Of a DNA stretch of 64,000 nucleotides, positions 58,977 through 61,337 are shown one piece after another (position 1 is the stretch's first letter; each line of letters opens with the position of its first letter). The DNA comes from Escherichia phage P896, in sequence record OL451225.1. One strand, written 5' to 3'. The translations under genes were made by a program, and so were the position numbers. The notes under the pieces are model-generated. The model was not told the origin of the DNA. It searched no databases and saw only the letters and a list, made by a program, of their open reading frames with translations.

Positions 58977-59554
58977 TTATATACAGTCTCTGTAATATGG
59001 GTTACTTCATCTATTTTATACCAATGGGTTTCAAGCATTTCACGTTTGCTTATATCACACAGGAAGTCATTATCCAACTGTACTGTTGAGTTTACGCGAT
59101 GCTTTTTATAAATTTTGGTCATGACAATTTCATCAGCATAAGGTGCAGCGGCTTCTAGCAATGATTTACCGCCAATAACACAGATATAATTTTCTGAAGA
59201 AATAAACATTTGTGCAGGAGAATCTGGCGCGGAGATAGAAACTTTTTCACCAGAAATCAATTTCAAATAATTGGTCCACGTGATATAACCGCCCGCCAAC
59301 TCACCAGCCTTTGTAACTGGATATGGTCGCGCTGGGTCAGCCACAACGACGTGAAAGCGCCCCTTTAATGTAGACGGCAGGCTTTCAAAGGTTTTTGCTC
59401 CCATGAGCACGATAGAGTTTTTTGTGCGAGCCTTGAAGTTCTGCAAGTCTTTTTTGATATGACCCCATGGCAGACCATCGTCAAGTCCAAATGCATTTTC
59501 ATCACGACCATCAACTGTTTTAGTTGGAGCATAAGCGAATACTAATTTAATCAT
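58973..59554 (-). CDS. frd: dihydrofolate reductase (Frd)
   Basis: 193 aa; [30 protein letters not shown]...; ATGA-coupled to td. Confidence 0.9.
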
Positions 59555-59892
59555 TTTAATTCCTTAACTGCCTTTTTAATGGCAGTAAAATCTTTGCGAA
59601 TATCGAGAACCAATTTGTAAAGATGTTTAATTGTATCTGTATCAAAATATGATACAGCGCAACGTGATTGGCGAATATCTTCTAATGAATATTTGCTTTC
59701 ACTTGTACCATATCCAATAATACCACTAATGCACTTGTCATTAAGCGTATATTTCTGTGGACCATCAATATTATTTTTAGGATAGATGTAAAGGCTCCAA
59801 TCAAATTTTTGTTCAAGCGTATTAACCTTAACTTCAAGAATCAGTTCAGGATGTGCATCATCTTTAGCAAAACAAGTGTATTCAGTAAGCAT
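59551..59892 (-). CDS. hypothetical protein (frd.1 position)
   Basis: Start at [12 protein letters not shown] with GAGGA RBS; the longer track ORF overlaps the next gene out of frame. Confidence 0.55.
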
Positions 59893-59902
59893 TATATTTT
59901 CC

Positions 59903-60142
59903 TCACGCTTTCTTAGCAACTTTCCAGTCAGCTTTAAATTGGTCAACGTCAGAGTGATGAATCCAGAAACCAGATGAGCTACCATCTTCATAAAGAGGAC
60001 AACCATCACACTCATCTTTCCAACCCATCGCGCATAAAGTTTCTTCAGCTTTTTCCAGAGCTTCTGGATTGTTACCCTGGATTGTGAAGTACCATTTGCC
60101 TTTAACTTCTGAATCTTTGATGCTCTCACGTTGTAATTTCAT
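59903..60142 (-). CDS. hypothetical early protein
   Basis: 79-aa ORF downstream of family A cassette copy 3; GGAG RBS. Confidence 0.6.
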   Translation of the reverse strand: MKLQRESIKDSEVKGKWYFTIQGNNPEALEKAEETLCAMGWKDECDGCPLYEDGSSSGFWIHHSDVDQFKADWKVAKKA

Positions 60143-60213
60143 TTTATTCTCCAGGGTTTTAGTTGTTAACTCAGTATGGGACCATTATGTCATAGCCCCA
60201 TTTGGTTGTACAC
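60143..60213 (-). repeat. early promoter + 5'UTR cassette, family A copy 3
   Basis: GTGTAC (60208-60213), 18 bp, CATAAT (60184-60189), leader GTCCCATACTGAGTTAACAACTAAAACCCTGGAGAATAAA-ATG. Confidence 0.6.
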
Positions 60214-60219
60214 TACTTT

Positions 60220-60474
60220 TTAAATTTTATCAAGCCATTTGCCAAGTTTAATCATTTCCTTGGTGGCTTTTTCCATACTTCTGAACTTAACTAATAAAGG
60301 ATGAGTATCAACACCCATAACAAGATTGGTTGCAAGACTGTGCTCACCCACAAGCCACAATGAGTATGTTTGAACATCGAGACCATAATTTCTGTCTTTA
60401 TGAACTCGTACACCCATTACTTCAAATTGCTTGCTTGCTTTTTCTACTGCATCCAGGAAATCATCTTTAGTCAT
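60220..60474 (-). CDS. hypothetical protein
   Basis: Start at MTKDDFLDAV (track ORF is TTG-extended); 84 aa. Confidence 0.5.
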   Translation of the reverse strand: MTKDDFLDAVEKASKQFEVMGVRVHKDRNYGLDVQTYSLWLVGEHSLATNLVMGVDTHPLLVKFRSMEKATKEMIKLGKWLDKI

Positions 60475-60475
60475 A

Positions 60476-60843
60476 TTAGACCCCAAAAGTTGCTTTAATC
60501 AGGGCAATAACTTCCGCGGCATTTTTATGATTTACCTGCACATGAATGGTTTGGGTATCAACATCAGGAGCATCGCCATCAACTTCCAGGAAGTGACAGA
60601 ATTCCCATTCAGCGAGTTCAAAGTACTCATCAACATCACCCATACTATTCAGGATGGTGCCATCTTTCATTTCAACTTTTTCAACAAAATAATCACCTTC
60701 AATATAACACATATCCAGGACTTTGAAGGAATTGCCATGCTGTTCCATTAACTTGACCATGCACGAATTATCATCAGGACTACCAGCGATGAATTGTTTT
60801 TTAGCAGCAGGGTCTAATACGTAAAATTTACCAGTTTCCATCA
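60476..60843 (-). CDS. hypothetical protein (paralog family with 60907-61269 and 47496-48038)
   Basis: Start at METGKFYVLDPAAKKQFIAG with GAGGA RBS; DEYFELAEWEF motif shared with the neighbour. Confidence 0.6.
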
Positions 60844-60903
60844 TTTTAATTTCCTCATGTAGTTGATGGGTCCATAATAACATAATCATAGACCCGTTGT
60901 AAA
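60844..60903 (-). repeat. early promoter + 5'UTR cassette, family B copy 2 (diverged)
   Basis: GTTTAC (60898-60903), about 19 bp, TATTAT, leader GGACCCATCAACTACATGAGGAAATTAAA-ATG. Confidence 0.45.
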
Positions 60904-60906
60904 CTG

Positions 60907-61269
60907 CTATTTGAAAGCTTTTTGTAGAAGTTCAATGATTTGGTCGACGTTATTAGCATCCACAACACAATTAATAGAAACCGCCCCCGAAGGTGTTTTT
61001 GTATAATTGGAGTATTCACGGAAGCAATAAAACTCTTCTTCACTAAGTTCAAAATAATCGTCACCCATGCCATCATCATTATAGATTGCACCATTAGCAC
61101 AAATGATTTCGGTTACATAATCATAGCCGTCTGCACTTGATATTGATTTAACTTCAAACCAACCGCCATTTTCTTGGATGATGTCGACCATACTAGCATT
61201 CGATGAACTAATATCAATGAAAGATTTAATACGATGTGGATTGAACTCATATTTTTTGCCGATTTCCAT
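60907..61269 (-). CDS. hypothetical protein (paralog of 60476-60843)
   Basis: 120 aa; MEIGKKYEF..., DDYFELSEEEF..., C-terminal ...IIELLQKAFK. Confidence 0.6.
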   Translation of the reverse strand: MEIGKKYEFNPHRIKSFIDISSSNASMVDIIQENGGWFEVKSISSADGYDYVTEIICANGAIYNDDGMGDDYFELSEEEFYCFREYSNYTKTPSGAVSINCVVDANNVDQIIELLQKAFK

Positions 61270-61337
61270 TTTTATTTCCTCAGTTGTTATCAGTAGTTGA
61301 TGGAATCATTATGCCTTAGCTCAAAGGACTTGTACAC
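61270..61337 (-). repeat. early promoter + 5'UTR cassette, family B copy 3
   Basis: GTGTAC (61332-61337), 18 bp, CATAAT (61308-61313), leader GATTCCATCAACTACTGATAACAACTGAGGAAATAAAA-ATG. Confidence 0.55.

Follow-up and report, generated by a model that had tools for sequence, protein, structure and literature searches.

Gene content of the frd-32 interval

In this study we analyze the interval between frd and gene 32 of Escherichia phage P896 (sequence record OL451225.1), contained in a stretch of 64,000 nucleotides, hereafter the window. The interval holds five small genes, three of them preceded by a predicted early promoter embedded in a conserved regulatory sequence. These elements resemble the promoter-early stem-loop (PeSL) cassettes of T4-type phages, defined and tested by others (Arbiol et al. 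2010, PMC2839356; Comeau et al. 2014, PMC4122927). The interval is, very probably, a PeSL-type hyperplastic segment of the early region, where repeated cassettes and the 5' ends of paralogous genes feed the recombination of gene modules.

The window belongs to the T4-like genus Gaprivervirus. Over positions 59400-61500 its closest relative is Shigella phage SP18, with 98.9% identity; Escherichia phage 212 is 97% identical over the same span, with no insertion or deletion (indel). All genes of this part lie on the minus strand, in the transcription order 59, 32, frd.2a, frd.2b, orf84, frd.1, orf113, frd, td, nrdA, where orf84 and orf113 are open reading frames (ORFs) of 84 and 113 amino acids (aa). 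An earlier note on this DNA, made from the sequence alone, had listed five small ORFs of 79 to 122 aa: all are present at those sizes, and just one boundary needs correction, as frd.2b starts at 60844, the previous 60843 being one base short. The note had not recognized members of the known frd.1 and frd.2 families among them, as is shown by matches to Pfam DUF5417 and FRD2 (Table 1); the SP18 record already names the same genes frd.2a, frd.2b and frd.1.

The 84-aa ORF is translationally coupled to frd.2b via the sequence TAATATG, while the stop codon of the 113-aa ORF overlaps the frd start (ATGA). Both ORFs match PHROGs without assigned function, and the 113-aa family is limited to Gaprivervirus and Dhakavirus. 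The GC content of the interval is 31-41%, against 39-47% in the flanking core genes. Expression of the interval would proceed through three short minus-strand early units, each opening with a PeSL-type regulatory cassette: frd.2a alone; frd.2b plus the 84-aa ORF; and frd.1 plus the 113-aa ORF, the last one running into frd and td.

Table 1. Genes and predicted regulatory features of the frd-32 interval and related positions of the window (UTR, untranslated region; RBS, ribosome-binding site)
Feature	Position	Strand	Remarks
Gene 59	62352-63020	-	
Gene 32	61380-62291	-	Flanks interval
Gene 32 intrinsic terminator hairpin	61355-61376	-	9-bp GC-rich stem and T-run, strong fold; stem-loop part of cassette B1
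Cassette B1, predicted early promoter and 5'UTR/RBS of frd.2a	61270-61354	-	-35 TGTACA 61336-61331; -10 CATAAT 61313-61308; RBS GAGGAAATAAAAATG
frd.2a, alpha/T4-type Frd.2, 120 aa	60907-61269	-	Pfam FRD2 E=8.8e-36; alpha clade
T4-like tract of frd.2a (RBS and codons 1-86, barrel domain), ~274 nt	61013-61285	-	93.8% nucleotide identity to T4
Cassette A, predicted frd.3-type early promoter, precedes frd.2b	60845-60906	-	-35 TTTACA 60903-60898; -10 TATTAT 60879-60874
frd.2b, beta/JS98-type Frd.2, 122 aa	60476-60844	-	Pfam FRD2 E=2e-33
84-aa ORF (JS98 orf232 family, phrog_4423)	60220-60474	-	
Cassette B2, predicted early promoter and 5'UTR/RBS of frd.1	60143-60222	-	-35 TGTACA 60212-60207; -10 CATAAT 60189-60184; Shine-Dalgarno TGGAGAA
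frd.1, 79 aa, DUF5417	59903-60142	-	Pfam DUF5417 E=1.5e-35
113-aa ORF (JS98 orf228 family, phrog_8592)	59551-59892	-	
frd	58973-59554	-	Flanks interval
180-aa protein (JS98 gp212 family), between cd.2 and cd.3	47496-48038	-	

Predicted early-promoter cassettes

All three cassettes attributed by the earlier note to three of the five genes, one of family A and two of family B, were found; that they match published PeSL elements in their anatomy had escaped it. In each, a predicted promoter precedes a conserved 5'UTR and a Shine-Dalgarno sequence, either GAGG or GGAG. The -35 and -10 boxes agree with the spacing of 17+/-1 nt in the sigma70-like early promoters of PeSLs, with 17 nt between TGTACA and CATAAT in B1 and B2, and 18 nt between TTTACA and TATTAT in A. 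The 38-nt pattern AAAAGTAGTGTACA-N17-CATAATG, never found in shuffled sequences, occurs in exactly two copies, at 61344-61307 and 60220-60183, and B1 and B2 are 76% identical over 49 nt.

A predicted stem-loop lies within or next to the promoter, as in PeSLs. Hairpins overlapping the -10 box are predicted in cassette A (11 bp, 60868-60895, -15.8 kcal/mol, z=-3.0) and in cassette B2 (10 bp, 60176-60201, z=-2.6), while B1 directly follows the terminator hairpin of gene 32. The general plan would be a sigma70-like promoter, GT(T/G)TACA-N17/18-(C/T)A(T/A)(T/A)AT, with a stem-loop overlapping the -10 box or, for the first cassette, coinciding with the gene 32 terminator, followed by a conserved 5'UTR, a GAGG/GGAG RBS and the start codon.

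A strict T4-type early-promoter pattern matched the 64 kb of the window ten times on the minus strand and once on the plus strand, compared with about 1.6 matches in shuffled sequences, an approximately six-fold excess. All ten minus-strand matches stand directly upstream of an RBS and an ATG, and three of the ten fall within the frd-32 interval, which makes up 2.8% of the window (binomial P=0.002).

Cassette A is nearly identical, up to the RBS, to the frd.3 cassette of phages DCP80 and CJ20, and is the one that precedes frd.3 in other phages. The hairpin of cassette A is conserved across genera, from coliphages to Salmonella phage STML-198, with three compensatory pairs. In T4, frd.3 RNA begins at a +1A start of its own (bioRxiv 10.1101/2024.04.04.588121); the T4 GenBank record has no promoter features annotated in this region.

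Six more such cassettes are found elsewhere in the window, at 19137-19165, 35545-35573, 44023-44050, 44466-44494, 51358-51386 and 52904-52932; the one at 44023-44050 has a predicted 11-12-bp hairpin enclosing the -10 box (z=-4.5). They feature two conserved types of 5'UTR, '...ccatcaactac...GAGGAAA' and '...ccatactgagtta...ctGGAGaataaaATG'. The second type carries in its Shine-Dalgarno sequence a candidate RegB site, GGAG, the motif cut by the T4 enzyme.

Arrangement of the interval in related phages

The interval was fetched from 18 phages and the curated gene products were clustered by family to compare gene order (Table 2). The number of genes ranges from 3 to 7 and nearly all arrangements differ, that of the window recurring only in phage 212; more distant genera feature a single frd.2 amid other small genes. 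The 84-aa ORF lies 3' of the beta frd.2 in every relative having it. The closest database records, 25 in number and from 22 distinct phages, have matched spans between 2.1 and 3.05 kb, and the length found in the window is seen only in phage 212. A gene set and order universally conserved among relatives, the outcome that would have spoken against the hotspot of gene gain and duplication postulated in the earlier note, is clearly absent. The hotspot stands as far as gain, loss and reordering are concerned, with cassettes at the junctions, but not as a site of local duplication, given the separate clades, the differing order and the T4-like tract of the frd.2 genes described below.

Table 2. 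Order of genes from gene 32 to frd in representative phages (a, alpha frd.2; b, beta frd.2)
Phage	Gene order
Window, phage 212	a, b, orf84, frd.1, orf113
SP18	Order of the window, plus RB32ORF231c-like ORF
EAWsc9, YenP8	a, frd.3, b, orf84, frd.1, orf113
CJ20	Order of EAWsc9, plus RB32ORF231c-like ORF
DCP80	a, frd.3, b, then unrelated sequence
VR7	b, orf84, frd.3, frd.1, orf113, RB32ORF231c-like ORF
TH57	b, orf84, a, frd.3, frd.1, extra ORF, orf113, RB32ORF231c-like ORF
JS98	b, a-like, orf84, frd.3, frd.1, orf113
Bp7	b, orf84, frd.3, frd.1
T4	frd.3, a, frd.1

Inconsistent annotation of a stable operon might, in principle, mimic such variability, and the records are truly inconsistent: CJ20 and YenP8 feature a long overlapping ORF, YenP8 has no frd.1 call, and in phage 212 the product names, unsupported as labels, are displaced by one gene. 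This explanation is scarcely credible, and in fact already refuted, as DNA alignments reveal true indels of 222-950 nt, in addition to rearrangements, among phages 93-99% identical in their common parts.

The DCP80 record (140,978 bp) is peculiar in that homology to the window breaks off midway through the 84-aa ORF (from position 3833 of the locus onward); beyond the break lie three tiny ORFs, then a gene for a 'recombination and repair protein'. This reflects an assembly error or else about 30 kb of deletion or rearrangement.

Indel and rearrangement junctions

Breakpoints were placed by DNA alignments between relatives. In three of the four events examined, the junctions fall within cassette or RBS repeats, in agreement with the location of PeSLs at indel junctions.

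At the frd.3 indel the boundary is a repeat of 24-42 nt, corresponding to window positions 60842-60883 and including start codon, RBS, 5'UTR and -10 box; this segment aligns at two places in CJ20, EAWsc9, YenP8 and DCP80. Cassette A coincides with the frd.3 cassette of DCP80 and CJ20 up to ...ATCAACTACATGAGGAAA, and continues with the RBS and start of frd.2b, a hybrid structure suggesting that a crossover in the common ATGAGGAAAnTAAAATG took out frd.3 together with the original frd.2b cassette.

The second event is the indel of the alpha frd.2 with respect to VR7. The two phages share cassette B1, which in VR7 precedes the beta gene; the junction is a 29-nt stretch, made of the RBS and the codons for ME(I/T)GK common to the two paralogs. 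In TH57, where the alpha frd.2 and frd.3 are relocated as a module, all three junctions lie within 22-26 nt of RBS/UTR sequence. Altogether, the alpha frd.2 is found behind four different upstream contexts, an indication that genes and regulatory cassettes assort independently.

The Frd.2 paralog pair

The adjacent genes frd.2a and frd.2b, regarded as paralogs in the earlier note, are such by alignment: their products share 32% identity over the full length (BLASTP, E=3e-15), and both match Pfam FRD2 (PF03197), with scores of 123 and 115 bits, respectively, against a gathering threshold of 29 bits. Frd.2a is 79% identical in amino acid sequence to T4 Frd.2 and 57% to the alpha-like copy of JS98. 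Frd.2b is 89% identical to the JS98 protein named 'frd.2a', 88% to its counterpart in VR5, 80% in Bp7 and 72% in VR7; names in the records clash, the JS98 'frd.2a' being the orthologue of frd.2b as defined here. In a neighbour-joining tree the two proteins fall into separate clades, each spanning several genera.

The pair might have been produced by local tandem duplication, frd.2 being copied in place along with its promoter and diverging afterwards. The two genes are indeed adjacent and in the same orientation, the same RBS and first codons are found in both, as is a 20-nt stretch of 5'UTR (80% identical), and tandem FRD2 copies recur in Mosigvirus LF82-5 (two) and in the Vequintavirinae phage A5-4 (three). 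However, the copies are only 32% identical, compared with 72-89% for orthologues in other genera, and their clades are older than the split between genera. Furthermore, the order of the pair, a-b in the window, is the opposite in JS98, other genes come between the two in TH57 (b-orf84-a) and CJ20, the beta gene stands alone in VR7, VR5 and Bp7, and frd.2a holds a tract 94% identical to T4. Because of the separate clades, the variable order and the T4-like tract, a duplication in place is very unlikely, and a recent one is contradicted. An ancient duplication somewhere in the history of FRD2 may have occurred, though not here and not recently. The sequences argue instead for the assembly of two old Frd.2 lineages by module insertion and exchange.

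The T4-like tract comprises the RBS and the part of frd.2a encoding the barrel domain. Outside it, identity to T4 drops to 65% in td/frd, 77% in frd.1, 70% in gene 32 and 72% in gene 59, and the 3' end of frd.2a is nearer to JS98; frd.2a thus appears as a mosaic, bearing the trace of a recent exchange between genera.

Homing endonucleases offer another source of mosaicism, in which cassettes would have no role: gene conversion would be driven by SegG, encoded between 32 and 59, and by I-TevI, encoded within td, in relatives. SegG causes co-conversion around gene 32 in T4, and a GIY-YIG gene is found beside gene 32 in SP18, T4, RB3, Bp7, VR5 and VR7, the window being without it. Still, the T4-like tract is not contiguous with gene 32, since cassette B1 lies between the two and gene 32 itself is just 70% identical to T4, and for this reason we reject SegG co-conversion as the source of the tract. 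In addition, junctions are found at cassette and RBS repeats, with no gradient away from a cut site. We consider this explanation very unlikely, and favor the recombination of gene modules at cassette repeats.

FRD2 is a small family: a search with a Frd.2 profile of 1.84 billion representative proteins found about 40 genuine clusters, and reached neither GoF nor the 180-aa family discussed below. In the same context, giant RTX/HCBP-repeat proteins of 2,000-5,000 aa reached E-values as low as 6e-16 with both the Frd.2 profile and Pfam FRD2; these matches are most likely a repeat artefact, because they sum many sub-threshold matches of 42-aa repeats to the beta2-beta3 hairpin. Searches of NCBIfam and of PDB sequences with Frd.2 gave matches at chance level only. 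In Escherichia phage A5-4, which is rV5-like and lies outside the Straboviridae, the three FRD2 genes stand in tandem (2615-3748 of the fetched locus) with 36-57% mutual identity; the family, like its tendency towards arrays, thus extends beyond T4-like phages.

Predicted fold and possible function of the Frd.2 proteins

T4 Frd.2, GoF and MotB.1 are early proteins of one family, with an LSm-like (SH3-like) fold (Kim et al. 2025, PMC12152347). Structure prediction of the paralogs had been suggested by the earlier note, and an AlphaFold2 model of Frd.2b was obtained, with a pLDDT of 88.6. It features a bent N-terminal SH3-like barrel of five antiparallel strands with a helical insert (strands at residues 7-10, 39-48, 51-59, 64-66 and 85-88), a low-confidence linker at about 90-100, and a C-terminal helix at 109-120, which is the layout of the GoF/MotB.1/Frd.2 family, of barrel, linker and small C-terminal domain. 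Among viral models, Foldseek matched it to VR7 GoF (7.8e-6) and to T4 MotB.1 (4.2e-4). Kim et al. modelled the alpha-type Frd.2 of T4; the divergent beta paralog modelled here has the same fold. The two Frd.2 proteins would then be old paralogs within this family, sharing its SH3/LSm-like N-terminal barrel.

Wild-type members of the family are not known to bind RNA or to have any other activity: RNA binding or an effect on mRNA stability is reported only for the GoF(D25Y) mutant, and T4 frd.2 amber mutants plate normally (PMC12152347). In a CRISPRi-ART screen of T4, on the other hand, frd.2 was scored important for fitness, as the sole gene of unknown function rated 'Fit' (PMC11879866). The proteins of this family probably bind RNA or a host protein.

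A distant relative of the pair is the 180-aa protein encoded between cd.2 and cd.3. The N-terminal motif that the earlier note had pointed out in this protein and Frd.2b is confirmed by pairwise alignment (E=3e-4 over 32 aa), and the likeness extends past the N-terminus: comparison of family profiles by hhalign gave a probability of 94.4% (E=8.6e-8, 92 columns, including an EF.(H/Y)F motif), falling to 80% against a more diverse Frd.2 profile. Matches are reciprocal, in that, among the 304 ORFs of the window, each family profile finds its best outside match in the other family. Moreover, the 180-aa protein matches the goF PHROG (E=1.1e-8). On these profile comparisons it qualifies as a remote member of the SH3/LSm-like Frd.2/GoF family, thus adding a relative to those described by Kim et al. 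Its gene has its own predicted early-promoter cassette, TTTACT-16-TATAAT at 48095-48068, with a 5'UTR of the 'catcaac...atgaggaaa' type.

Proposed recombination of gene modules at cassettes

The proposed mechanism may be outlined as follows. The same cassette sequences, 25-100 nt long, recur before unrelated genes, and the frd.2 paralogs have their first five codons in common; these repeats would serve as short substrates for homologous recombination, allowing modules to be deleted, inserted or moved, yet still be expressible. We infer from this both a recombination pathway and the direction of single events: frd.3 would have been lost by an RBS-region crossover between its cassette and that of frd.2b, and a T4-type frd.2 module would have come in behind the gene 32 cassette, ahead of the JS98-type frd.2 already resident.

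The cassettes resemble PeSLs in several features. Cassette A fits the published T4/PST early consensus TTTACW-N17-TAYWAT (PMC2839356, PMC4122927), stem-loops mostly cover the -10 box, a Shine-Dalgarno sequence is present, and the cassettes are concentrated in variable regions, before small genes without a known function, at indel junctions of close relatives. There are differences as well: the -35 sequence of the B-type cassettes is GTGTACA, such elements had not been described previously for this genus or interval, and the cassettes studied here are known from sequence, whereas for PeSLs the defining features include demonstrated promoter and terminator activity and excised mini-circles.

A number of observations weigh against the proposed mechanism. 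The three promoters and attenuators are predictions, derived from consensus and fold. A generic sigma70 scan of the region gave 11 sites, not above the 12.1 expected by chance, so that only the extended cassette pattern is significant and the argument for promoters rests on it. Cassette B1 has only a degenerate hairpin at the -10 box, and the covariation supporting the cassette A hairpin comes from a set of nine related sequences. In the fourth event examined, the indel of the RB32ORF231c-like ORF (present in SP18, CJ20 and VR7), the junction is formed by 6 nt at an overlapping stop/start, with no cassette. Crossovers fall mainly at the RBS/5'UTR end of the cassettes and in the first codons, and not in the promoter/stem-loop core as in RB49/phi1, where they map to the loop or to the AT-rich part. 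Finally, structural matches of the Frd.2b model to solved proteins, the nearest folds being FeoA and IdeR, are weak (Z <=5.6).

All the components were already known: the genes from the annotation of JS98 and SP18, the cassettes from papers of 2010 and 2014, the fold family from one of 2025. T4 frd.1/frd.2/frd.3 and the frd.2a/frd.2b of JS98, JS10 and SP18 belong to the same families (Pfam FRD2, DUF5417) and occupy the same position between 32 and frd. Unlike the T4 frd region, the window is without frd.3, and its 84-aa and 113-aa ORFs are absent from T4; compared to SP18, it lacks the RB32ORF231c-like ORF. New details are the junctions resolved in this genus, the opposite order of the Frd.2 lineages in JS98, the T4-derived frd.2a tract and the 180-aa relative. 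The interval thus confirms published models and, being an ordinary example of a known variable region, opens no new question; it is, at the same time, a clean natural example of the reshuffling of accessory early genes in T4-type phages, with breakpoints placed to 20-40 nt in regulatory repeats of phages 93-99% identical. It also indicates that Frd.2 exists as two old lineages able to co-reside, and knock-out studies in phages where they do so must consequently allow for redundancy.

It is conceivable, if on the whole improbable, that the cassettes are portable expression units with two conserved 5'UTR types (GAGG, and GGAG as a would-be RegB site), by which SH3/LSm-like early genes could pass from one T4-like genus to another and work behind any cassette. 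The alpha, beta and 180-aa proteins would then have diverged in function, each binding other host RNAs or surfaces of RNA polymerase, and would not be redundant with each other; Frd.2 would be a host-adaptation module. Such a role, if true, would explain why frd.2 is the only gene of its kind singled out by the CRISPRi-ART screen.

Annotation and neighboring features

No stop codon interrupts the frame of the 113-aa ORF on its upstream side, across frd.1; the result is a 192-aa ORF with a GTG start (59551-60129), and it is this long version that is annotated in CJ20 and YenP8. In EAWsc9 the 113-aa ORF (1352-1693 of the fetched locus) is labelled 'type II toxin-antitoxin system PemK/MazF family toxin', an assignment that we reject, as neither sequence nor fold similarity to MazF/PemK was found. 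Equally unsupported are the YenP8 labels 'endonuclease VII', for frd.2b, and 'ssDNA binding protein', for frd.3.

Between genes 32 and 59, no segG-like GIY-YIG gene is found in the window (62292-62351), nor in JS98, DCP80, CJ20 and LF82-5. Rfam and tRNA scans of positions 58900-62500 gave no matches, and neither MotA-type middle promoters nor TATAAATA late promoters occur within the frd-32 interval. The sole MotA-box-type middle-promoter match near it, AATGCTTGA-N12-TATAAAAT, lies at 59013-59039, in the 3' end of frd and upstream of td.

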